Source: a virus
Lineage: Duplodnaviria; Caudoviricetes
Virus record (IMG/VR): IMGVR_UViG_3300034084_000026
Location: 1-40,408 of that record
Direction: 5' to 3' (one strand)
DNA: 40,408 bases
Shown here: positions 8,628 to 39,422 of the stretch, piece after piece
Position numbering within the stretch: the first letter of the stretch is position 1
Layout of the letters: every line of letters begins with the position of its first letter
Position numbers and translations under genes: made by a program
Notes under the pieces: generated by a model
The model's database searches: none
Told to the model about the DNA's origin: nothing
The model's input: only the letters and a program-made list of their open reading frames with translations

Positions 8628-10199
8628 ATGCCAAATATAAACGAATATCAGCAGCGCACAACCACCCCCGGTGTTGCCGGTGGGCCGGAAATGAGGGCGG
8701 CGGAAATAACCGGAACCGGCAGAGGGATGCAATTCCTCGGTCAGGGGATGGCGGACGTTGCTGACACTCTGGTCGAAAGGGATCAAGAAACAGCCAGAGC
8801 TTGGAGTGCTGAAGCCCTTTCCAAAGCTCGTCTTGACTGGACGTCCCAACTTATCGAGCGCCAATCCAAGGCCGAACCGGGTGCGCCGAATTTCACGGAA
8901 GGGATGCTTAAGGATTACGACGAATATATGGATAAGTCGGTCGAGTCCGCCCCTTCTGGTGCTGCTAAAAAATTCATGAAAGAGCGGATGTTGGAAATGC
9001 GCACCCAGATTGGTGAGGGTGCCATGCGGTTTGAGGCTCAGGCCCGGATTGATTACCGGTCTGATAAATTTACCTCTGCCATCGACAACACTGAAAAATT
9101 GATGAACACCGACCCGTCGCAGTATAAAATTGCGCTGGCCGAACAACTTGCAGTTATTGATTCTGCCAACCTGCCGCCCATAAAGAAATCGGAATTGCGC
9201 CAAAAGGCGGTAGACAGAATTTCGGGTGCCGCCGTGTGGTCACAAATTCAGAAGTCCCCCAATCAGTTCCTTGACTCAATCGGGTTCATGGGGGCAACCG
9301 ACCCGGCCACCGGTAAAGTCCGCAAGTCGTCCGGTAACATAACTGGGATGACCGGAAACCCCGCATTTGACGCCCTGCCGTTTGAGCGCAGAACTCAGAT
9401 GTTTGAGGGGGCTATTCGTCTGAAAGCCCAAATAGACGGGGATGCCAATATTGCAGCGGAAAAGGTAAAGAAACAATTGGCCGAAGACGCCATGAAAGAG
9501 GGTTGGGGCAGGCTGGCCAGTGGGAAATTGAACAGGGCTTACGTAGAGCAGATCCGGCCCCTGTTATCCGCTCCCGAATACCACAGCCTGTTGGAGGGGA
9601 TGAAACAGGCTTCTACCGGGGGCGTTAAAACCGATCCCGGCACCTTCCGCCATCTGCAGGAGTTGCTGTATTCTGATCCCCCTGCGGCCCACGCTTACGC
9701 GCTAAAAGCGCACAAAAACGGATTATTGTCCAATGAAAACCTTTCATCGGCACTCACCCATGCCAAGTCCCTCAAGGACAGCGAAGGCCCTAAAAACGAG
9801 TTCCAACGCACCCGGTCATACATCAGGGATTCTCTGGACCCCGGCCCAATGGTTCAGGACCCTGTGGGTAAATCCCGATTTGCGGAAGCGCTGTATACCT
9901 ATGACAGTTGGGTTAATTCCGGCAAGCATACGGATGAAGAGATTGCCAAACGTGGAAAAGAAATCGTAGGCCAGTACAAGTTTATAGACTTTTCTGACAC
10001 TGTGATGGCCCTCCCGCAGCCGCGCAGCGGATCAATCCGACGCAGCACCACTGACCCCAACGGCATGCTGTCGGACGTTGGGATCGCGGCCAAGAAAGCC
10101 CAGTCCAAACTGGATAAGGGCGAAATGACCAAGCAAGAATTTGACCAAGAAATGGTTATACTTAACAGATGGCGTAAAGCCGCAAGTGGGGGCAAATAA
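8628..10199 (+). CDS. Internal virion (ejection) protein, gp15 position
   Basis: MP.I..Y N-terminus, helical 523 aa, synteny. Confidence 0.7.
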   Translation: MPNINEYQQRTTTPGVAGGPEMRAAEITGTGRGMQFLGQGMADVADTLVERDQETARAWSAEALSKARLDWTSQLIERQSKAEPGAPNFTEGMLKDYDEYMDKSVESAPSGAAKKFMKERMLEMRTQIGEGAMRFEAQARIDYRSDKFTSAIDNTEKLMNTDPSQYKIALAEQLAVIDSANLPPIKKSELRQKAVDRISGAAVWSQIQKSPNQFLDSIGFMGATDPATGKVRKSSGNITGMTGNPAFDALPFERRTQMFEGAIRLKAQIDGDANIAAEKVKKQLAEDAMKEGWGRLASGKLNRAYVEQIRPLLSAPEYHSLLEGMKQASTGGVKTDPGTFRHLQELLYSDPPAAHAYALKAHKNGLLSNENLSSALTHAKSLKDSEGPKNEFQRTRSYIRDSLDPGPMVQDPVGKSRFAEALYTYDSWVNSGKHTDEEIAKRGKEIVGQYKFIDFSDTVMALPQPRSGSIRRSTTDPNGMLSDVGIAAKKAQSKLDKGEMTKQEFDQEMVILNRWRKAASGGK

Positions 10200-16868: not shown

Positions 16869-16960
16869 ATTTTTCCCGCAATCCGGCCTATCTTATAAAT
16901 TACGGCCCCGATGCAAAACAACACTATGGCCCAAGTACTTTTAGGAGGCTTAGGCATCAT
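16865..16960 (-). CDS. 31-aa single-TM microprotein (not in the ORF track)
   Basis: MMPKPPKSTWAIVLFCIGAVIYKIGRIAGKI; GGAG RBS; ATGA overlap with the next gene. Confidence 0.55.
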   Translation of the reverse strand: MMPKPPKSTWAIVLFCIGAVIYKIGRIAGKI

Positions 16961-17501
16961 TTATCTCCGCCATAATGCCGTTAATTACCGGCCACCACGC
17001 GTATTGGGGATAGATATCTATGCATTCCCCCGCCAAAAGAACCACCCGCTCCCTCAGGCCGTCCAGCACGTCTTCCGCGTGTTTCCCCATTCCTTCGTGG
17101 ACTAAGAAGTTTACGGCCTCGAGGGTGTCCGCCAGCTTCACTATCCGTATGACAAGTGGGTAATCATCTTTCAGCGATAGGTAAAATCTGCTGTATTCGT
17201 CAGATAGAGACAATTCTATACGCCGGATGGGGTCGGAATGTGGAACCGCTTCGCGCATTGCCGCTTTTACCGGGGTGGCCAGATCCCCAGTCACCACTTC
17301 CGGGATATCGTGCATCATTGCCCACCTGATGCACCTTACTCGGACATCCGGCTCGGCACCCAGCTCCCGGCTTAGGTGCTCGGCTATTTGCGCCACCAAG
17401 TACATATGCTCGGCAATGGTCTGCTCCCGCGCAACGCGAACGATCTGCCAGCGCTTCACATGACCGGTGCGCAGTTTCTGGCGCAATGATAACTCAGCCA
17501 T
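16950..17501 (-). CDS. datZ: HD-domain dATP triphosphohydrolase (DatZ)
   Basis: HVKRWQIV, EH, MHD..E..TGD and KLAD motifs (YfbR-like HD family); in an operon with purZ. Confidence 0.85.
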   Translation of the reverse strand: MAELSLRQKLRTGHVKRWQIVRVAREQTIAEHMYLVAQIAEHLSRELGAEPDVRVRCIRWAMMHDIPEVVTGDLATPVKAAMREAVPHSDPIRRIELSLSDEYSRFYLSLKDDYPLVIRIVKLADTLEAVNFLVHEGMGKHAEDVLDGLRERVVLLAGECIDIYPQYAWWPVINGIMAEINDA

Positions 17502-17776
17502 TATACTGCCCTCCCTTTTATTTCCATCAATCCGTGCTGCTCTAGGCAGGCCACCCCTGTGGCCACCGTCTGTAAGATTTCATGCAGAACCGAGTCCCGC
17601 CCTTCTCCGCCCTTAATTAGGGCATGTTTGGCTTCCGCAAGTTCGGCCTCCATTATGATAATCCACTCCCCGATGGTATGGCCACTATTTTCTAGGTTGC
17701 CATGCTTTTGGTCCTGATAGAACCGCTCGGCGGCGATTTCGATCATAACTTCCGACATAAGAAATTTTTGGGTCAT
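17501..17776 (-). CDS. mazZ: MazG-like (d)GTP pyrophosphohydrolase (MazZ)
   Basis: ER..QD.K.G, E.E..E and E..Q..A..VA all-alpha NTP-PPase pattern; lies between purZ and datZ. Confidence 0.75.
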   Translation of the reverse strand: MTQKFLMSEVMIEIAAERFYQDQKHGNLENSGHTIGEWIIIMEAELAEAKHALIKGGEGRDSVLHEILQTVATGVACLEQHGLMEIKGRAV

Positions 17777-18930
17777 GATGGTGTCCTCAGTCCGATGAAA
17801 TATGATTCGTCGCTCTTGCGTCGGGCCTTCAATACACTGCCGATTACGATGGGGTCGATGCTGTCCGGCAGTTCAAGAATATCATCGACCGTTGGCCCAA
17901 AACCAGCGAACCGCACATACGGTGCGCACATCCAGTTGGCGTTGTTTATTCCCGCCAACACCTTGTTTATTTCCACGATCATGGATATCAACGAATCCGT
18001 ATCCTTGATGTAATTAGCGAAGTTCAGGAATAACTCGTCTGGTTCGCATTGCCGAACCGCTTCGTACAATTGGGTGTTGCTGAATGTGAACACTCGGCGC
18101 GGCAACTTGGTTACGGTTGTGAGTTCCGTTTCTACCCCCAATTCATTGAACGTTATCTCCTTCTGATCGGGGTAGTGCGGCCCGGACCAACCCACCATAT
18201 TTCCGGCCCCGTCAAATCGGTTCGCTACCCGGATCGGGTACGTGCGTAGGGTGCCGAACACCTTATTCAGTCGGCTTATGGGCACCCCACAATCGGCCAA
18301 CGTCTGGGCGGGGGTAACGTCCCGGCTAGTGCAATATGGGTAGAAACCATGGTACATGGACAGGCTGTAACCCTGCGCACCCTCGATCTGTATTGTATTC
18401 CCCCGGTCCACCGCCTCATTATATTCGGTAACTGAGCACAAATATTGCTCTAGGGGTGTTCCCTTCAGCATAACGTCCGCGATGTTCATGGCATCCGGGT
18501 TGCGTTCGATCCGCTGGATCGCCGCCGCCCCCACCCCCTTCTTAGTGGACCCGATTTTTGTCATCAGCCCAGCTTCGGTGTCCCGATGCGACTGGGCTAT
18601 CACCGCCGCGTGGGGGTGGATGAATATGTTTACACCCGACCCGTCGACAAGACCACATTCATTGAGTTCCCGGTAAAGGTTGTGCGGGTCGATCAGCGAA
18701 CCGGGGCCGATCAGAACTTGTTTCAGATTGGGGGACACAACCCCGTTGGCCAACATGGTGTGGATGTATTTGCGCCCATCCGAGTCAATGAAGGTGTGGC
18801 CAGCGTTGGCGGCCCACGCGGTAATCAGAGTGTCCGGCTTGTACTTCTTTGCTAGATACCCGGCCAGCAGGCCCTTGCCGGTGGACCCGAACTGTAAATC
18901 AAAAATCATGTATGTGAATGCGTTTTTCAT
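17773..18930 (-). CDS. purZ: N6-succino-2-amino-2'-deoxyadenylate synthase (PurZ)
   Basis: PurA fold (NAGHT, EGAQG, YPYCTSR) with DLQFGSTGKG (Ser replacing the PurA Asp of GDEGKG), TVTKLPRR, and NFANY in place of TKLD. Confidence 0.93.
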   Translation of the reverse strand: MKNAFTYMIFDLQFGSTGKGLLAGYLAKKYKPDTLITAWAANAGHTFIDSDGRKYIHTMLANGVVSPNLKQVLIGPGSLIDPHNLYRELNECGLVDGSGVNIFIHPHAAVIAQSHRDTEAGLMTKIGSTKKGVGAAAIQRIERNPDAMNIADVMLKGTPLEQYLCSVTEYNEAVDRGNTIQIEGAQGYSLSMYHGFYPYCTSRDVTPAQTLADCGVPISRLNKVFGTLRTYPIRVANRFDGAGNMVGWSGPHYPDQKEITFNELGVETELTTVTKLPRRVFTFSNTQLYEAVRQCEPDELFLNFANYIKDTDSLISMIVEINKVLAGINNANWMCAPYVRFAGFGPTVDDILELPDSIDPIVIGSVLKARRKSDESYFIGLRTPS

Positions 18931-22964: not shown

Positions 22965-23213
22965 TTAATATTTCTGTATTCCGCCACACTCTTCCCAATC
23001 TTCGGCCAGCAAATCGGTGTGGGTTGGGTTCCATGGTCCCCGGCTGTCAGAAATCATGTTTGGCTCCGCCACCTCAACATATATGTATGGCATCGTCATC
23101 TTGCTGTTTTCATCCGGCACCTGTAATTTAAGAATGGCGTATATCCCGGCCCACGCCTTGCGGCGGACTGGCCTTTTGCATTTCAACTCATATAGCGCTT
23201 GTCCAAAGTTCAT
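22965..23213 (-). CDS. DUF2829 / Tad2-like protein
   Basis: MNFG.AL..LK....V.R..W, PYIY and PW.P...DLLA.DW family pattern. Confidence 0.8.
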   Translation of the reverse strand: MNFGQALYELKCKRPVRRKAWAGIYAILKLQVPDENSKMTMPYIYVEVAEPNMISDSRGPWNPTHTDLLAEDWEECGGIQKY

Positions 23214-23324: not shown

Positions 23325-23684
23325 TTAGTGTTGCGGTTCTTTGAACTTCAATACATGAACTATGGCGCGGAAGATAAAATCTTTTGCCTGTTGTTCTTTC
23401 GGCAAATCAGCGAACGGCACCATGCATGGGTGTTCTTTCATGTCCGCGTCTTTAACTGGTCCGTATTTCCAACCATCGGCCAATTTAGCATTCATCCACC
23501 CGATGTGGCTTGCTTCAGGCCCGAAATCACCCATAAGATGCATATCAACACCCATTCTAGCTGATTCCCTCTGCCATTCGGGGGCCTCCAACCACGGCAA
23601 TTGACTATCATCGCCCAATGCCTGACAGTACGCTCGGTTCACTTCGTGGCAAACCTTTGCTATGTAATCAATTTCGTCTTCCAT
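23325..23684 (-). CDS. Stand-alone RyR-domain protein
   Basis: H..WM..K...GW.YG...D...K.HPC.VPF..LP......D, the ryanodine-receptor repeat signature. Confidence 0.82.
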   Translation of the reverse strand: MEDEIDYIAKVCHEVNRAYCQALGDDSQLPWLEAPEWQRESARMGVDMHLMGDFGPEASHIGWMNAKLADGWKYGPVKDADMKEHPCMVPFADLPKEQQAKDFIFRAIVHVLKFKEPQH

Positions 23685-29302: not shown

Positions 29303-29503
29303 TCATAGCACCCTCCGGATTTCCAGTTTCTTAACACGATTGGCCTCATGGCAGCAGTACGTCGCCCCCATTTCGCGGATGATCTTTGCCACCTTTTTTG
29401 CGTAGGGGTCTTTGCCGGTGCGCTTCTGTAGCGGAAGTATGACGTGATTTTCCGAAAAGTCGCGCTCCCACATTAAATGTTTAATCCATTCGACGAGTTT
29501 CAT
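29303..29503 (-). CDS. Hypothetical protein
   Basis: ATGA overlap with the upstream gene; AGGAG RBS. Confidence 0.65.
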   Translation of the reverse strand: MKLVEWIKHLMWERDFSENHVILPLQKRTGKDPYAKKVAKIIREMGATYCCHEANRVKKLEIRRVL

Positions 29504-30171
29504 GATTTCCGCTCCTTTTTCATCTGGTTACGAAGGGCGTTGCCCAAACACATCCTCTGCTGGCCGGGGTTTAGGTGGCCATATTTCATCTTTAGGGTAC
29601 TTGGTTTGGTGTATAGCCGCTGGGCGGCTATTCGATAAACATCATCTAAATCTTTTGCGCCTCGCAGTAGGGTCGCTACTTTATCGCCCACATCGCGCAC
29701 CCCGGCCTTCGCCCGTTCTTTTCTCTGGACGTCGGCCATGGTCGGCTGTTTCATGTAAGGATTTTTTGTTACCGGGGCCAGTTCAACCAGATCCGCGTGG
29801 ACGGCGAACCGGGTGCGTTCCTTGGGGGCCGGGCGGTTAGGAGCCAGTGGCATGTCGGAGAGCATTACGTGAACGCCTTCCTCCCAGTGGTCGTGTACTT
29901 CCTCGATCCAGTGCCGGACACCCCGATACCATACCTGATCGCATAATTTCAGTGACCCCTCGGGGTGTTTTTTTGGGTACAGCTTAGTCGGGATGGGGGT
30001 CCGGGTGTGGGCATCGGGCTGGACTGATTTCTCGCCCATCTTGGTTTTCTTGGGGGCGGTGGTTTGGGGCAACTCTTCAACCACCGGAGCCGGGGGCGGT
30101 TTTATTTCTTTCTTGGGCTTCGGCGCGGGAGCCGGAGTATCCCCGAATAGGTCGTCAAGCGTGATTGCCAT
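29500..30171 (-). CDS. Hypothetical protein with C-terminal 'KYGHLN.G.QRM.LGN' domain (paralog 1)
   Basis: Pro/Lys-rich N-terminus; C-terminal ~60 aa align with 31304-31879. Confidence 0.8.
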   Translation of the reverse strand: MAITLDDLFGDTPAPAPKPKKEIKPPPAPVVEELPQTTAPKKTKMGEKSVQPDAHTRTPIPTKLYPKKHPEGSLKLCDQVWYRGVRHWIEEVHDHWEEGVHVMLSDMPLAPNRPAPKERTRFAVHADLVELAPVTKNPYMKQPTMADVQRKERAKAGVRDVGDKVATLLRGAKDLDDVYRIAAQRLYTKPSTLKMKYGHLNPGQQRMCLGNALRNQMKKERKS

Positions 30172-31303: not shown

Positions 31304-31879
31304 TTACTTGGCGTTCAGGGCGGCGCGGATGCGGTTGCCCAGATTCATGCGCTGCATGCCGACGTTCAGGTGGCCGTATTTGGCGATCAGGTCTTTTTCG
31401 GTCTCGCCCAACGCTTTGGCGGCGGCCTTGTACACCTCGGAGAGATCCTTGCCGCGCAGCTTGGCTGCAAGCTCGTCGCCGTTATCTACGCTGACGTTGC
31501 CGCCGGAGGTCTTGTGCTCTTTGTCGTGGACGTATTGCTTAGCGTAGACGCGGAGAACGTCGGTCGGCTTGCCAGAGGCACCCACAGTGGCGGCTTTCTC
31601 TTTCGCCTTTGCGGCTTTCTCGGCGGCCTTGGCCTTGTCAGCCTTCGCTTTCTCGGCGGCCTTCGCTTTGGCGGCGGCCTCTTTTTCCTTCGCAGCTTTG
31701 GCCTTGGCGGCCTCTTTTTCCTTCGCGGCCTTTGCTTTCGCCGCGATGGCGGCGGCCTTGGCTTTCTCTTTGTCGGTCAGAGCGCCCGATTTGGCTTTGG
31801 GGGCGGGTTTTGCCTTCGCGGGGGTACCCACAGCAGCGGGGGTGTCGGAGGCGGTCGTATTTTCGGTGGTCGTGTTCAT
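31304..31879 (-). CDS. Lys/Ala-rich (histone H1-like composition) protein with 'KYGHLN.G.QRM.LGN' domain (paralog 2)
   Basis: AGGAG RBS before ATG 31879; KAKAAKEKEAA repeats; shared C-terminal domain. Confidence 0.85.
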   Translation of the reverse strand: MNTTTENTTASDTPAAVGTPAKAKPAPKAKSGALTDKEKAKAAAIAAKAKAAKEKEAAKAKAAKEKEAAAKAKAAEKAKADKAKAAEKAAKAKEKAATVGASGKPTDVLRVYAKQYVHDKEHKTSGGNVSVDNGDELAAKLRGKDLSEVYKAAAKALGETEKDLIAKYGHLNVGMQRMNLGNRIRAALNAK

Positions 31880-32164: not shown

Positions 32165-32238
32165 GGTGTATCTCCTGTCTGTTGTCTGAAAACCCCTATT
32201 GAAACACATGAAAGCCGGGTCTGTCAATACGTGAGCGC

Positions 32239-32598
32239 TCACTCGCCGGGGTGCGGCACCCCCACATATGGCGTGTACTCTTGCTCCCGCTCGTCCGGCA
32301 CCCACAGTTCGGTATCCATCCGGACCATTCCCGTGACGTGGACGTTGTCCTCGGGCCGGGGGCCGTACCCTCGCGTCAGGAGCACGAAGCTGGCGGTATC
32401 GGGGCCGTGCGGCACCCACGACAGAAGCTCGAATCCCGCGCATTCCTCGACGGGCAGCCCCGCCAGATCGGCGTCGGCTTGCTCCATCGCCCGGAGAAAG
32501 CTATCCGGGGAGAGGGCACCCACGATAGCGAGTTTTTCTGTGGCGGCCTCGCCGGACATGCCATCGATGGAGGTGGCGGTTGCGTTTTTTGTGGGCAT
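32239..32598 (-). CDS. Acidic hypothetical early protein
   Basis: AAGGAG RBS; 119 aa. Confidence 0.75.
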   Translation of the reverse strand: MPTKNATATSIDGMSGEAATEKLAIVGALSPDSFLRAMEQADADLAGLPVEECAGFELLSWVPHGPDTASFVLLTRGYGPRPEDNVHVTGMVRMDTELWVPDEREQEYTPYVGVPHPGE

Positions 32599-32632
32599 GG
32601 TGTTCTCCTTCGTCTATAGAGTTAGTGGGCGC

Positions 32633-32854
32633 TCACTTCGGGGATTTCTTGGCACGGCATTCCGGGGGGACCAGCATCGAGACACCCACATTCGTGGCTT
32701 TGTCCCAGTCCCCGATGCATGCCCCCGGCTCCCGCCCGTCCGGCCATGCGGCCCATGCGATGGCGCAGTCTTCCCGGTCCTCGATGGACACCCGTGCGGC
32801 CCTTTTGTGCATGGCGGCTTCCCATGCGGCGCGGTCTGTGTATACGTTTTTCAT
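32633..32854 (-). CDS. First gene of the early operon, hypothetical (73 aa)
   Basis: AGGAG RBS plus leader motif before ATG 32854 (MKNVYTDRAAWE...). Confidence 0.7.
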   Translation of the reverse strand: MKNVYTDRAAWEAAMHKRAARVSIEDREDCAIAWAAWPDGREPGACIGDWDKATNVGVSMLVPPECRAKKSPK

Positions 32855-32916
32855 TTTCCTGCTCCTGTCTGTCGTCTCTGCCGGGAGGCGGATGCCGCCC
32901 CGGTATAGAAAAGACA

Positions 32917-32933
32917 AGCAAGTGCCGTGCCAG
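32917..32933 (-). promoter_or_regulatory. Sigma-54 (-24/-12) consensus, leftward
   Basis: CTGGCACGGCACTTGCT on the - strand, about 60 nt upstream of the first early gene. Confidence 0.7.
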
Positions 32934-32993
32934 ATCGGGGTGTTTCGCCTTCCGTGGCCCGTCCTTGCGGGTTTTACGGGGTGAAAGGCCCAT

Positions 32994-33010
32994 CTGGCAC
33001 GAATCTTGCC
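32994..33010 (+). promoter_or_regulatory. Sigma-54 (-24/-12) consensus, rightward
   Basis: CTGGCACGAATCTTGCC. Confidence 0.65.
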
Positions 33011-33022
33011 TATCGGCCCCGA

Positions 33023-33060
33023 TATGCCGTCCTTGGGCATCTGTATGCCGTCCTTGGGCA
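33023..33060. repeat. Tandem repeat, 2 x 17 bp with 21-bp period
   Basis: TATGCCGTCCTTGGGCA at 33023 and 33044. Confidence 0.85.
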
Positions 33061-33189
33061 CCCCGAGAGGCCCCGTCCTTCCGTGGTCTGGCCCCGAAAG
33101 TTAGCGGTTCTTAACTTGGAGAGGGCCGGGGGGCGGGCAGCTTCGAGGTATGACGAGGGACGGCAGATCCGGGGCGGCGGCGGGGGATA

Positions 33190-33206
33190 GGCAAGACTCG
33201 TGCCAG
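33190..33206 (-). promoter_or_regulatory. Sigma-54 (-24/-12) consensus, leftward
   Basis: CTGGCACGAGTCTTGCC on the - strand. Confidence 0.65.
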
Positions 33207-33540
33207 CCTAGCGGGAGACACCCGGAGCGGATCGGCGGAGAAAACCGCGTATGCGCTCGTCATGGGCGTGAGAGAGGCGTCTGCGGCCCGAAGGACGGGG
33301 GCCGTGGCTGTTCCGGGCGTCTGTTCCGGGCCGTGTACCGGAAAGGCCCGAGAGGCCCCGGACGACGGGATACGTATCCCCCCCGGCGTGTTCTGCGTCT
33401 GTTCCGGGTGTTCTGGTTTAGACTCGGTCTAAGGGGCCCGGAGGGCCGCGTCCGTGGCCGGTCTTGGAGGATATATGCGTCGTTCGGGGGCTGTGGGGTT
33501 AAGAACCACTAACCTGCGGCGCGGGGGTCTCGGGGCGGAT

Positions 33541-33557
33541 CTGGCACGAGTCTTGCT
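33541..33557 (+). promoter_or_regulatory. Sigma-54 (-24/-12) consensus, rightward
   Basis: CTGGCACGAGTCTTGCT. Confidence 0.7.
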
Positions 33558-34372
33558 TGTGGCGATGTTCCACGGGCGATGGAGGCCGTAGGGGCGGGGG
33601 CCGGAGGGGTGCGGAGGGGTGCGGAGGGCGTTCTGGGCCGCGTGGAACAGACCGGTACACCCGGAACAGACGCGGAACAGAAGAAGACACCCGAAGATGC
33701 CCGTCCGTAGGGGTGTGTGTGCCTGTGGGGGGGTGCTCTGTTCTGCGTTCTGGGCGCGCGTGCGTGTGGTGCGCGCTCTGGCGCTGTGCGCTGGCTACGC
33801 AGGCGCAGGCGGGACGGTCCCGGCCAGAACAGGCGGCGGCAGAACACGGCGGGGGGTGTGAGAAAGGCGGCGGAGGCCGCAAGGACGGGGCGGGAAAGCA
33901 TCTTGACGACGGGGTGTTCTCTGTGGTATCGTGGCGGGGTGTCTCGCGCGCCCGTGCGTTGCCGGGACTCAAACAGGGCCGACGATCGGCCTCCGCCCCC
34001 CAACCGAGGATTTCCTTCGTGGCCAAAAGCAAGCCGACCAGCAAACAGCAAACCCCGAGCGCGGCCTCCCGCGATGCGCGGCCCCTGTCTGCCGTCCTCG
34101 ATGGCCCCGCCCCGGCCACGGGGGCCGCCTCTCTCGTTGCGCCGGGGGCCGGGGGCGGCGGAGATAGCCAGCCGGGGCCGGACAACGACGGACGGGCCGC
34201 CCCTGCAGGACGGGCGAGGAAGGGCCGAGCGGGGCCGAAGGACGGGGGGCAGGAGGCAATGGGGGGTATCTCTTCGCCGGAAAAAGCCGGAGGGGGGGTG
34301 GGGGCCAAAGCGCGTGGGTCCCTTGCCGCAGGGCGGGGGGCTTCCCCTCTCTCGACTGACCCCCAAGAATCT

Positions 34373-34939
34373 ATGACGGAAGCATACCGCAATACAGTAG
34401 TATTCGGTGTGTCCCATCCAAATATATACGATAATGATACCCCCCATTTTTCCGGGTCCCCCTCCGATGATACCCTAACCCCCGATCACGCCGAAAAGTT
34501 ACAACAATTACTCCCCCCATCATCCAATTACGACGAACTGAATCCACCCCCTGCCCTGCCGGTGCCGTCATTGGCCCACCTTAAAGGTACGGGGCTGAAG
34601 AATGTGGGCAAGGATAAAAACGGCAGAGTCATCCCGCATGTGCGTTCCGAACTTCTGGCGCAAAAAATATGTGAACTGGTAGCATGTGGGGCATCAGCCA
34701 ACGACATTGCAGTGCACTTCAACATTCGGCCCGGCTTACTAAAACAGTGTTACGCCACGGAATTGGAAGCCGGGGCATTCGCCCCAAACATGGCTGTAGC
34801 GGGTGCTATCTTGGACCGCGCAAAAAGGGGTGACCCCCGGCTGGCCATCTATTGGACCAAGGCCCGAATGGGCTGGCGCGACGGAGACGGGGCCGAACGA
34901 ACGGACGTAAGCCCGCTTAATATCCATATCCACCTATAA
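34373..34939 (+). CDS. Probable terminase small subunit (HTH)
   Basis: G.S...IA.....L...Y..EL..G and A..GD..A.IYW.KAR.GW motifs; upstream of terL. Start codon uncertain. Confidence 0.7.
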   Translation: MTEAYRNTVVFGVSHPNIYDNDTPHFSGSPSDDTLTPDHAEKLQQLLPPSSNYDELNPPPALPVPSLAHLKGTGLKNVGKDKNGRVIPHVRSELLAQKICELVACGASANDIAVHFNIRPGLLKQCYATELEAGAFAPNMAVAGAILDRAKRGDPRLAIYWTKARMGWRDGDGAERTDVSPLNIHIHL

Positions 34940-35093: not shown

Positions 35094-35344
35094 TGGACGT
35101 AACCCCTACAAACAGCATGTTCAAGGTAATGTCCTCGCTGACGGACGCCTTCTGCGGGGAAGAGCCAGAAAAATTACACACCGGGCCGGGTGCCTCCAAG
35201 GTGCGGGAAAACAGGAAGATGATGATGGACGTGCTGCACCGGCTAGTACATCTTTCGATGCGCGAAGGTGCCGCTCGAGCGATGAACACTCACTCACGTT
35301 CCGGAATCGAACTGCCATCGGGAGTACACATCCGTGGAAGCTGA
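35093..35344 (+). CDS. Hypothetical protein
   Basis: Coupled to the upstream gene and overlaps the terL start. Confidence 0.6.
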   Translation: MDVTPTNSMFKVMSSLTDAFCGEEPEKLHTGPGASKVRENRKMMMDVLHRLVHLSMREGAARAMNTHSRSGIELPSGVHIRGS

Positions 35345-36869
35345 GGTACACATACCGGGAAAAGGTAAAAAGCCGGGGTCGCCGCAAAAAGATGGCGGCA
35401 TCCATTATTATCCACCCGGCCCAGTAGCTAAAGCCTTCCTCCGGGATGACTCGTTCATAACCGGAATACGCGGCCCGTTCGGTAGTGGTAAGTCTACCGC
35501 CGTCATAATGAAGTTGATAAAGAACGCCCAGCAGCAGCCACGCGGGGCGGACGGCTGGAAAAGGCGCAGAACAGCAATCATACGTAATACGTACCCCGAA
35601 CTGAGGACCACGACGATGAAATCGTGGCACCAGTGGATACCACAACATATGGGCCGGTGGCGGGAATCGGGTCCGCCCATGCACCATATTGTGGACGAGA
35701 ATGACAAATTCGACTGGGAGGTGATCTTCGTCGCACTTGATCGGCCCGACGATCTAGCTAAGCTGCTGTCCATGGAACTTTCCGATGCTTGGGTGAACGA
35801 GGCGCGTGAAGTACCCAAGGCCATCGTGGACGGTTTAACAGGCCGCGTGGGGCGCTACCCTCCCCGCTGGCAAGCTGAGCCAACAAACGTTCAGATTCTA
35901 CTTGACACCAACCCGCCCGACACCGACCATTGGTGGTACATTCTGGCAGAAAAAGACACATCAAACGAGCGCAATCGCCAGCTTATTCAATCGATGGGCG
36001 AGGCTGAAGAAACCTTACGATCCAAGGGTGTCCTCACCGGAACACAAAAGTTAATGTCCTTCTACTCCCAACCGTCCGGTAGGGCGCAGAATGCGGAGAA
36101 TCTGCGCAACCTCCGCCCCGGATACTACGACTTCATGATGGCCGGTAAGGACGCCGATTGGATCAAGGTGTACATTGACGGCGAATACGGCTTTGTGATG
36201 GACGGGCTGCCGATGTTCCCAGAGTACAAAGACTCCCTGCACTGTAAAGACCACCTCATCATACCGGGGATTGGATTACGGATCGGGATGGACTTTGGGC
36301 TTACCCCGGCGGCTACCATTTCCCAGAGAACCGGTAATGGTAAGTGGGTAGTTCATGATGAATATGTGTCAGAGCGGATGGGCATCGTGACGTTCGCAAA
36401 CGACCTAATACGCAAGCTGCACGAACGGTATCCGGGGATTAAAATTATATCGTCACGCGGGGACCCGGCTGGTGATGCGGTTACGCCGGAAGAGAAGACC
36501 TGCTTCCAGATAATGACGGCAGCAGGACTTCCAACCCAACCCGCCCCGACCAACGACCCGGTTCGACGCCGGGAGTCGGTGGCCTACTTGCTTAAAACCA
36601 TCGTGGACGGCGAACCGGCGATGACGATCCACTCCCGCTGTAACATCTTACGGAAAGGGATGGCCGGGGGGTATCACCGCAAGCGCCTCATGGTGTCCGG
36701 GGACGTGCGCTATCGTGACGTTCCCGATAAGAACCAGTACTCCCACGTATGTGAAGGGCTGGAGTATGATTGCTTGTCGGCGGGAGAAGACCGAGCAATT
36801 CTGGTAACGCCAGAAAACAGGAGCGCTGTAAAACAGCAATATGCGCAATCAGATTATGAAATGTTCTAG
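35334..36869 (+). CDS. terL: Terminase large subunit
   Basis: Walker A GPFGSGKS, IIRNTYPEL, WVNEARE, DTNPP, nuclease GMDFGLTP and GDPAG. Confidence 0.93.
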   Translation: MEAEVHIPGKGKKPGSPQKDGGIHYYPPGPVAKAFLRDDSFITGIRGPFGSGKSTAVIMKLIKNAQQQPRGADGWKRRRTAIIRNTYPELRTTTMKSWHQWIPQHMGRWRESGPPMHHIVDENDKFDWEVIFVALDRPDDLAKLLSMELSDAWVNEAREVPKAIVDGLTGRVGRYPPRWQAEPTNVQILLDTNPPDTDHWWYILAEKDTSNERNRQLIQSMGEAEETLRSKGVLTGTQKLMSFYSQPSGRAQNAENLRNLRPGYYDFMMAGKDADWIKVYIDGEYGFVMDGLPMFPEYKDSLHCKDHLIIPGIGLRIGMDFGLTPAATISQRTGNGKWVVHDEYVSERMGIVTFANDLIRKLHERYPGIKIISSRGDPAGDAVTPEEKTCFQIMTAAGLPTQPAPTNDPVRRRESVAYLLKTIVDGEPAMTIHSRCNILRKGMAGGYHRKRLMVSGDVRYRDVPDKNQYSHVCEGLEYDCLSAGEDRAILVTPENRSAVKQQYAQSDYEMF

Positions 36870-37691: not shown

Positions 37692-39422
37692 ATGAAGTGC
37701 TTATTGCTCACTGAACCCGTACTCCCAGAAGGTGCTTCTGATAAAAACAAGCTGTATAGTGTCCGCAATCAACTTGCCGGACTAGGCATCAAATATGACC
37801 GGCAGCGAAGTGATAATATCTCGGACTATGCCGCTATATCTGCTGCCTATGATTTTGTCTGCATACCTTATGTGGGTGATACTGGATTCAGGACGATGCT
37901 AAACAGCGCCCTGCTAACCATACCTGTGATTATTGCAGAGATGGGGAATACGACAGCAGTAAACCTTGGGAATACTCCGGGTATTCAAGGCACCGGACTC
38001 CCTGCTGCGTCAGATGCATTTTTTCAGTCTGTGTTTTGTACTTCTCCATATATGGCTACCAATGCAAGGTGGGCAACCCCCCATGCAACGGCTCCGGGTG
38101 TACCCCTATTGTGGGCAGCAGCAACTAGTCCCATTGACGCTTCCGCGCAAACCGAGGCCGGGTTATGGGGCGCTTGGAGAACCACAAAAGCTGGGGCTGG
38201 AGGAATCTACGCGAACGTACAGGAACAGAACGTGGTTCCGTTTGTTGCGTTCCTTATCCAAGCTGCCTATAACAACGGTGACTTTACTGCCTCGCAGATG
38301 GCTGGTTTGCGTAGATTGCCTCTGTCCATAGATATGGATCACTTGTCAGGGGCGCATTTTACCGATATTAATATCCTTAACCGATGGTTAACCCAAATCC
38401 CCAGCAATGGGATGTCATGGTGCGGAATTAACAATGCATCTAAGCAAGCGACTGCACCTGCGGGAACTCTCACACTATCTGCTGCAACAGTAGGCACAGG
38501 AAGAACACTTACATCCAGCGTTGCAGCCACATTTGCCTCTACAGATGAAACAGATGGTGCTATTGTGTGGTGTGGAGGCGGGGTAGCCAGAGTCACCGGC
38601 TACACAAGTGGCACAGTCGTTACTGCTGAAATCCTAATTGCTTTCCCAGGAACAAGTTGCCCATCTGGCACTTGGGGTAAAACCTACTACAACAGCATAA
38701 CAAATATGTCGGCTGGGGTTAAGGCTGCGCTGCAAGCTGCCCATGCTGCCGGGAGAATTAAGTTTTGCTATCATGACCACTCTGCGGGCAAAGAGCATTT
38801 TTCAAGTGGGTTCTGGCCTTTTAATACTTGGGGTGGAACTATGGTGGCAAATGCCAATGTTACCAAGGCGATTCAGGACAGCCATTACCAGTACCTCAAA
38901 AGCATATGGGAAGCTGCTGGATTCTCTTTTGACCTACCAAGTTTCTATGTTCCGGCATCAAATGCTTGGAATGAAGATACGCTGCTGCTGCACCAGCCAC
39001 GCAGCAGTCTCGCGGCCTCCCCGGATAACTCTGCCGCAAAGGTCGGGTATGGCACAACTATGGTAAGGCAGGCGTATGCCAGCCCATCATCAAGACCAAC
39101 AACAGTCATGGGCGTTGTCAATAAGAATGGGCATATCAAGCGGGATTATTTTGCAGGGATGACCTTTGTGTGGTCAGCCGACTTATCTCCAACTGACGCC
39201 GGGCTGACCGAATCGCAGTGCCGCTCAATCTGGCAGTGGTTTCTGTATGCGCTACATTTCGGTGGCAGCGTGTACTTACATGACGAGGATTTTATAGACA
39301 CACAAAATCCCATTACGGGGGAGTATGGAGTTGAATTGCTCAGCCAGCTTAACCAGATGGGAGCATACCTGACTAATGTTTCTGCATTTTGGGCAGACCA
39401 AACAAAATATTCTTTAGGGTGA
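37692..39422 (+). CDS. 576-aa protein, putative polysaccharide deacetylase-like with an inserted beta domain (moron-like insert, gene 2)
   Basis: IDMDH, YHDH, YVPASN and VYLHD occur in NodB/CE4-like order. The function is an inference. Confidence 0.6.
   Translation: MKCLLLTEPVLPEGASDKNKLYSVRNQLAGLGIKYDRQRSDNISDYAAISAAYDFVCIPYVGDTGFRTMLNSALLTIPVIIAEMGNTTAVNLGNTPGIQGTGLPAASDAFFQSVFCTSPYMATNARWATPHATAPGVPLLWAAATSPIDASAQTEAGLWGAWRTTKAGAGGIYANVQEQNVVPFVAFLIQAAYNNGDFTASQMAGLRRLPLSIDMDHLSGAHFTDINILNRWLTQIPSNGMSWCGINNASKQATAPAGTLTLSAATVGTGRTLTSSVAATFASTDETDGAIVWCGGGVARVTGYTSGTVVTAEILIAFPGTSCPSGTWGKTYYNSITNMSAGVKAALQAAHAAGRIKFCYHDHSAGKEHFSSGFWPFNTWGGTMVANANVTKAIQDSHYQYLKSIWEAAGFSFDLPSFYVPASNAWNEDTLLLHQPRSSLAASPDNSAAKVGYGTTMVRQAYASPSSRPTTVMGVVNKNGHIKRDYFAGMTFVWSADLSPTDAGLTESQCRSIWQWFLYALHFGGSVYLHDEDFIDTQNPITGEYGVELLSQLNQMGAYLTNVSAFWADQTKYSLG

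Follow-up and report, generated by a model that had tools for sequence, protein, structure and literature searches.

Two-way sigma-54 box cluster beside the terminase genes of an uncultured podophage: possible docking sites for host RNA polymerase

The window analyzed here, a stretch of 40,408 bp from an uncultured virus (IMG/VR record IMGVR_UViG_3300034084_000026), represents a near-complete podophage genome (97% by CheckV) and carries four exact sigma-54 boxes, TGGCAC-N5-TTGC, which are confined to about 640 bp, with no further exact match in a whole-window pattern scan. They occupy a gap flanked by the early arm, which reads leftward, and the terS-terL arm, which reads rightward. It is plausible, with a probability of roughly 0.45, that they serve as docks for host sigma-54 RNA polymerase, mostly without initiating transcription, and load a host protein on the DNA that probably enters first. 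The preliminary description of this region had proposed that both arms are launched from sigma-54 promoters and had mentioned, as an alternative, sites that load or trap the holoenzyme during DNA entry; this alternative is supported and has become the leading reading.

The exact boxes are located at 32918-32932 (-), 32995-33009 (+), 33191-33205 (-) and 33542-33556 (+), giving the strand order -,+,-,+, and neighboring boxes are 62-336 bp apart, a tight head-to-head pair being absent. The 17-mers given earlier for box 1 (32917..32933, -), box 2 (32994..33010, +), box 3 (33190..33206, -) and box 4 (33541..33557, +) are the same four sites with one base added on each side, and the statements that no other full match exists and that flanks are shared in an outer and an inner pair are confirmed in the sequence. 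All four boxes contain GG at -25/-24 and GC at -13/-12. They had been called perfect, which holds for positions -26 to -12; at -11, where the sigma-54 consensus is A or T, boxes 1 (T) and 4 conform whereas boxes 2 and 3 have C, the class-wide A/T fraction being 0.69. With up to one mismatch, ten sites were identified in the window against a shuffle mean of 3.3, the six non-exact ones being scattered. An origin by chance or as an assembly repeat, for which nothing speaks beyond the GC-rich and repetitive setting, has a practically negligible probability: exact CTGGCACG-N4-TTGC occurred on average 0.02 times (maximum 1) in 200 Markov-1 resampled genomes, contigs of four other sequencing runs, from a set of 12 DNA runs, cover the region with no differences listed, and the spacing control described below refutes it. 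A DNA search with the region returned no match in cultured phages.

A pattern of two divergent boxes identified 72 viral loci, which fall into 41 clusters from unrelated phage groups with GC contents of 0.36-0.70. Among the non-anchor boxes of these clusters, 90 had the sigma-54 spacing versus 4 at seven other spacings, relaxed matches numbered 157 versus 8-20 in shuffles, and the class logo, YTGGCAYG-N3-C-TTGC-W, equals the sigma-54 consensus. The clusters hold 2-16 boxes in both orientations, and convergent neighbors are frequently placed head-to-head, 3-8 bp apart (36/54). This head-to-head form was estimated to occur in about 240 viral stretches (at least 120 among the matches listed, with 149 pairs counted), versus no viral match for the same pattern with a 1-bp shorter spacer. 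In prokaryotes it was found in 28 stretches of 596 Gb, mostly short MAG contigs, three of which have a terminase within 1.5 kb; head-to-head pairs are phage-biased. A terminase gene (terS or terL) lies within 3 kb in 20 of the 41 clusters, always downstream and reading away, and was not seen within this distance in the other 21, the scan covering 75 of the 143 flank ORFs. In one case, a T7-like phage, the cluster lies where the contig ends.

It is very improbable that the motif is merely sigma-54-like and is read by a phage protein such as TerS, a replication initiator or a repressor. The position beside terS and the repeats typical of pac or origin regions would fit such a protein, and palindromic pairs would suit a dimer; however, no phage protein common to the clusters was found, and the recurrence of one motif over a GC range of 0.36-0.70, in phages with several unrelated TerS/TerL families and also in a T7-like phage, argues that the binder belongs to the host and not to the phage. 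The bipartite form with fixed spacing, Y at -21 and W at -11 also counts against a phage binder, and the proposed identity of the boxes as sigma-54 sites is supported by exact matches together with strict spacing across viral clusters. A phage-encoded sigma-54 domain (PF04552) was sought and rejected (0/41 clusters). Motifs of the SlmA-binding sequence (SBS), DnaA, PhaR-like, NrdR-like and IHF types were denser near the arrays than farther out, each in 1-8 clusters in a scan with consensus sequences, and KOPS, Chi, matS, parS and FNR motifs were not enriched there. In addition, an NtrC-type palindrome lies inside one array (L057:2400-3500) and tandem DnaA boxes inside another (L059:2000-2050).

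Of the 15 TerL relatives identified in IMG/VR, five distinct phages (six loci, 66-72% identity) extend into the region, the remaining close relatives ending before it; the two distant ones (44-48% identity) have no box cluster. Boxes are present at the same place in all five relatives, in the order -,+,- in L006, L007 and L013, -,-,- in L002 and as a single box in L012, and one exact box was found in a further truncated relative, L269. Conservation of the GG-N10-GC spacing had been put forward as a check on the sigma-54 assignment, and the 10-bp spacing is kept in 5/5. As the inter-box DNA aligns only in short motifs while the boxes persist, the boxes are under selection.

Box 1 is treated differently from the others. 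The first early ORF (32633..32854, -; 73 aa, with an AGGAG ribosome-binding site) starts with an ATG 64 nt past the GC of this box, and the box is followed by an AT-rich stretch at -11 to -1 (AT fraction of the melting region 0.73, versus 0.27-0.45 for boxes 2-4) and a predicted +1 at A32906. It has a correctly oriented gene downstream, whereas boxes 2-4 lie 300-1000 nt from a gene or meet another promoter first: no gene follows box 2 before box 4, box 3 converges with box 2 at 181 bp, and a sigma-70-type late promoter lies 346 bp downstream of box 4. A/T at -11 is found in box 1 of 6/6 clade members versus 4/12 other boxes (P=0.013), and the distance from box 1 to the first ATG is 52-64 nt in 4/6. 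Box 1 may be a real promoter, and the odds are about even that it doubles as the promoter of the first early genes, fired by a host activator.

That all four boxes are working sigma-54 promoters, with boxes 1 and 3 serving the early arm, boxes 2 and 4 serving the late arm or antisense transcription, and a host enhancer-binding protein activating them, is nevertheless unlikely. In its favor are the context of box 1, the lack of any sigma-70 consensus ahead of the first early ORF (a weaker sigma-70-like early promoter, TTGACA-18-TTCAAT, is internal to the early arm at 32198..32227, -), and the palindrome RTGAC-N7/8-GTCAY, which lies at enhancer distance, 75-195 bp upstream of box 1, in 4/5 relatives (L006:3353; L012:8023 and 8119; L013:2159; L002:7413 and 7533). 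This palindrome is a candidate enhancer for a host activator, and the window holds only a degenerate copy of it, near 33151. Further support comes from one array-bearing record, G022, which encodes a sensor-less activator at a distance of 5 kb from divergent boxes, and from phage YuA, whose promoter P015 is labelled sigma-54 in the part of PMC10914365 that lists it, although YuA has no box with up to one mismatch near P015. Against promoters, NtrC, NifA and IHF sites are absent from the control region of the window, the melting regions of boxes 2-4 are GC-rich, boxes 2 and 3 carry C at -11 and lack a gene led by a ribosome-binding site, and the count and direction of boxes 2-4 differ among relatives. 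The late arm already has a sigma-70-type promoter with an extended -10 upstream of terS (33903..33932, +), as do all five relatives. Of the earlier proposal for both arms, the early part thus retains support from the context of box 1, and a sigma-54 launch of the late arm is not supported.

The only direct functional datum comes from the cultured phage PAK_P3, which carries an exact divergent pair (50798/50946) where its early block ends on the inner side; the terminal repeat, in which no box was found, is 12 kb away. No transcription start was listed for this pair among rows P024-P075 of cappable-seq Table S3, a thresholded map of one growth condition, the nearest starts being at 48439 and 51049, both sigma-70, and TGGCAC or TGGCAT occurs in no PAK_P3 row of the whole file. 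The silence of this pair also counts against sigma-54 promoters.

Other cultured carriers were found by BLAST with one array, which gave weak matches to 44 Pseudomonas and 301 Vibrio records, of which representatives were checked; of the other array queries against cultured phages, one gave no carrier and one gave weak matches only. In phage K8, whose 1188-bp terminal repeats are annotated (PMC4773840, in part), 7 of 16 distinct sites (up to one mismatch; three exact) fall in the repeat (P ~6e-10), on both strands and with 4/7 within an ORF; 12 kb inward there is another cluster, which includes a head-to-head pair. PAK_P1 has 6 of 17 sites in its repeat (67966-69139; PMC4309531 S1 Table) and one more 50 bp outside, with the same second cluster about 12 kb inward, and in Kat boxes likewise occur both in the terminal repeat and some 12 kb farther in. 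As K8, PAK_P1 and Kat belong to one genus (Pakpunavirus), they constitute one line of evidence. In the T5-like phage D419, sigma-54, DnaA, LexA and CRP boxes adjoin the A2/A1 genes and recur 10.7 kb from the record end, a position resembling that of the T5 injection-stop region; there, D419 has DnaA and LexA boxes next to a head-to-head pair. T5 itself has no exact sigma-54 box, and its annotated injection-stop region (L261:6141-7150, T5 9140-10149) holds DnaA, exact LexA (9411) and Fur-like boxes. With T5 and the PAK_P3 repeat boxless, sigma-54 appears to be dispensable in related phages.

In the docking reading, host sigma-54 holoenzyme would bind the boxes, stay closed and start no transcription. 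When stable, a closed complex forms a large and tightly bound clamp that does not move. The gap between the early arm and terS would hold the physical ends of the genome, and, with a pac near terS, general packaging rules would make the box side the last to be packaged and the first to be ejected. Acting in cis, the bound host proteins would anchor the incoming DNA, ratchet it in or shield it, anchoring or ratcheting being favored. Sites in either direction for unrelated abundant host proteins, at termini and at a spot like the injection stop, fit such a physical role better than regulation. In addition, two holoenzymes at the 3-8 bp head-to-head distance would hardly be workable as promoters. 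A non-initiating role is likely, given the head-to-head pairs, the many two-way boxes, the boxes inside ORFs, the rarity of an activator and the silent PAK_P3 pair. According to sections of PMC4591121, sigma-54 holoenzyme needs no activator for binding, and most of its sites are inactive, so that a phage lacking an activator is no longer puzzling.

Several observations count against docking. The window lacks a tight pair and its box spacing suits promoters too, box 1 being promoter-like. Non-coding space is itself concentrated at ends, the gap near the end being the largest such space, and location by itself does not prove an entry role. The sensor-less activator of G022, the lack of an exact box in T5 and in the PAK_P3 repeat, and the 21 clusters in which no terminase was seen nearby likewise count against docking. 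Moreover, a K8 resistance screen with 16 mutants reported O-antigen genes only, in the portion of PMC4773840 that describes it.

SlmA-type sites accompany the boxes. The only two SBS matches in the genome are at 32231..32242, with an exact SBScons core 4 bp upstream of the early -35, and at 32625..32636, with one mismatch; published SBS cores exceeded chance. Control regions of 6/6 clade members have 1-6 SBS matches versus shuffle means of at most 0.07, and an SBS match lies 4-12 bp upstream of the late (terS) -35 in 5/5 relatives. These sites in the window, L006, L007, L012, L013 and L002 may regulate late transcription or block host division, and they would point to a beta- or gamma-proteobacterial host.

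Two other roles for bound host proteins were considered. As a DNA decoy, replicated copies would titrate sigma-54 holoenzyme, together with SlmA, DnaA, LexA and Fur, and would shut host programs such as pili, flagella, Psp and division. The orientation-independent, high-consensus and multiplied sites would fit, terminal repeats double them, and SBS-bound SlmA blocks FtsZ according to parts of PMC4423959. However, four sites per genome are a small sink before replication, the positional bias is strong and includes boxes embedded in an ORF, and T5-like phages destroy host DNA early, leaving little to regulate (bioRxiv 866236, in part); a decoy is improbable. It is quite improbable that bound sigma-54 holoenzyme represses, times or insulates nearby sigma-70 promoters. 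Portions of PMC4591121 describe repression by sigma-54 where it overlaps another promoter, the Kat pair ends 11 bp before a -35, and SBS matches abut the terS -35 in 5/5 relatives; on the other side, all boxes of the window are more than 340 bp from a sigma-70 consensus, and intragenic sites gave no roadblock effect in the same source.

For the genome content, 53 of 251 listed ORFs were scanned, and purZ (17773-18930), datZ (16950-17501), a family-A polymerase, a primase and two helicases were identified, with no RNA polymerase gene among the 53. The combination of purZ, datZ and family-A polymerase suggests a Z genome, and it had been proposed that ATP-driven opening by sigma-54 offsets the extra stability of Z:T pairs. 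This link is not borne out: an exact TGGCAYG box was found in 0/22 cultured phages chosen by protein similarity, including 0/11 purZ-positive ones, and most array contigs have no purZ. Of 46 array-bearing records, chosen for length and searched for purZ and an activator, 12 were near-complete, and a PurZ-family match was present in 3 of these 12 (34-43% identity, which may be PurA) and absent from 9. The 3/12 appears to be more than random phages would give, possibly by kinship, and most array carriers lack purZ; K8, PAK_P1 and D419 are absent from the 60 purZ matches listed. Box clusters as a Z-genome trait were rejected, as exact boxes are absent in the 11 cultured purZ phages and arrays are present without purZ.

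The earlier view that the window encodes no activator is upheld: six-frame searches gave no PF00158 match, and neither GAFTGA nor a sigma-54 DNA-binding domain was found in the window. An activator above the cut-off was found in 1/46 array-bearing records; this 252-aa sigma-54 activator (L267:1321-2079; G022:24837-25307), with GAYTGS and without a sensor domain, is 5 kb from a divergent box pair and may form a phage-encoded activator system with it. The suggestion of a novel phage activator in the window is not supported, as none was found and the only conserved early candidate is predicted to fold as a four-helix domain without match. This domain, of family phrog_8941, is the common 70-aa C-terminal part of two paralogs with Ala/Lys-rich tails (31304-31879 and 29500-30171, -); its single-sequence model has a pLDDT of 73 and gave no PDB or Atlas match. 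It matches 57 phage records, with names that overlap those in the list of purZ matches, and it is possible that phrog_8941 is an unrecognized member of a proteobacterial Z-genome kit.

The control region contains further repeats. A weaker 16-bp repeat resembling SBS17, with a pattern fitted to the window, occurs at 33100..33115 (+) and, inverted, at 33498..33513 (-). A TGTTCY repeat cluster (33309..33920) includes two copies of GTTC-N7-GTTC (33390, 33664), the commonest spacing in six regions from the window and relatives (7 versus at most 3 for others); these TGTTCY/RGAAC repeats, placed between the boxes on one side and the late promoter on the other, are candidate pac or origin iterons or alpha-type LexA boxes. 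The repeat AAGGACGG has 7 of its 8 genome copies at 32959..34245, pointing outward from the center, with four on the - strand in the left half and three on the + strand in the right half, and it also recurs beside sigma-54 boxes in L053. No DnaA box was found in 32600-34400. A CsrA-sponge RNA from box 3 is not supported, as the predicted fold places its AAGGA motifs in base-paired segments. Downstream, a terS-like ORF (34019..34939, +; about 306 aa) was assigned by position and by inspection of the C-terminus, with no PHROG or Pfam match for the last 135 aa, and is followed by the terminase large subunit gene (35334..36869, +). Between terL and the portal gene, a 576-aa ORF (37692-39422, +) without Pfam or PHROG match is polysaccharide-deacetylase-like by eye only. 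Elsewhere, a Tad2-like (Thoeris anti-defense) domain (22965-23213, -; Pfam E 1.6e-16) adjoins an ORF with a RyR domain (23325-23684).

A wider generalization, possible if somewhat unlikely, is that many unrelated phages write landing strips of high-affinity sites for host proteins into their first-injected DNA and injection-pause point, where a closed sigma-54 holoenzyme would be a clamp that anchors the genome or ratchets it in, interchangeable with DnaA, LexA, Fur or SlmA depending on the host. If true, it would represent a general protein-free entry device and would explain the T5 injection-stop signal. Two old questions are touched, namely how DNA entry ends after the capsid pressure is spent and what binds the T5 injection stop. 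The boxes of an uncultured phage are now tied to the tractable cultured phages PAK_P1, K8 and Kat, and such boxes mark likely termini and sigma-54- or SlmA-bearing hosts for uncultured phages. The K8 receptor is the O-antigen (PMC4773840, in part), so deletion of rpoN should not block adsorption.

The sigma-54 site itself is textbook knowledge, and a precedent of the same kind exists in the DnaA proposal for T5. New here are the spacing controls, the contrast between viruses and cells, the cultured carriers with mapped termini, the silent pair in published transcription start data, the SlmA-type sites and the rejection of a connection to Z-DNA. In the literature searched, a scope that left out subscription journals and bioRxiv supplements, clustered sigma-54 boxes at the ends of phage genomes were not found described. 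Bacterial -24/-12 sites, as treated in parts of PMC4591121, are alike in sequence, in GG-N10-GC, in activator-free binding and in frequent inactivity, whereas the present sites are phage-borne, clustered and two-way, with the head-to-head form in about 240 viral versus 28 prokaryotic stretches. For T5, Davison (bioRxiv 10.1101/866236) proposed in silico that DnaA boxes in non-coding, first-entering DNA anchor this DNA at the injection stop; the portion of that preprint considered here names DnaA only, with sigma, RpoN, Fur, LexA and CRP absent from it. The likeness lies in boxes for host proteins and in the D419 sigma-54 pairs at the equivalent place, and it is a claim about the way of working only, since the 53 ORFs scanned gave no A1/A2 match and the control region has no DnaA box. 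YuA P015 is described, in the same part of PMC10914365, as a sigma-54-like promoter in a lytic phage without its own RNA polymerase; it differs in being single and internal, more than one mismatch from the consensus, outside any cluster and not at the packaging junction. SBScons and SBS12 cores, as given in parts of PMC4423959, occur exactly in the window and relatives, and the present sites differ in being phage-borne, in forming clusters and in lying directly next to sigma-70 -35 elements. With T7 the likeness is the recruitment of host polymerase to the first-entering end. There, active sigma-70 promoters at the leading end, all in one direction, pull the DNA in by transcription, whereas sites of the type found in the window face both ways and are likely to hold closed complexes.
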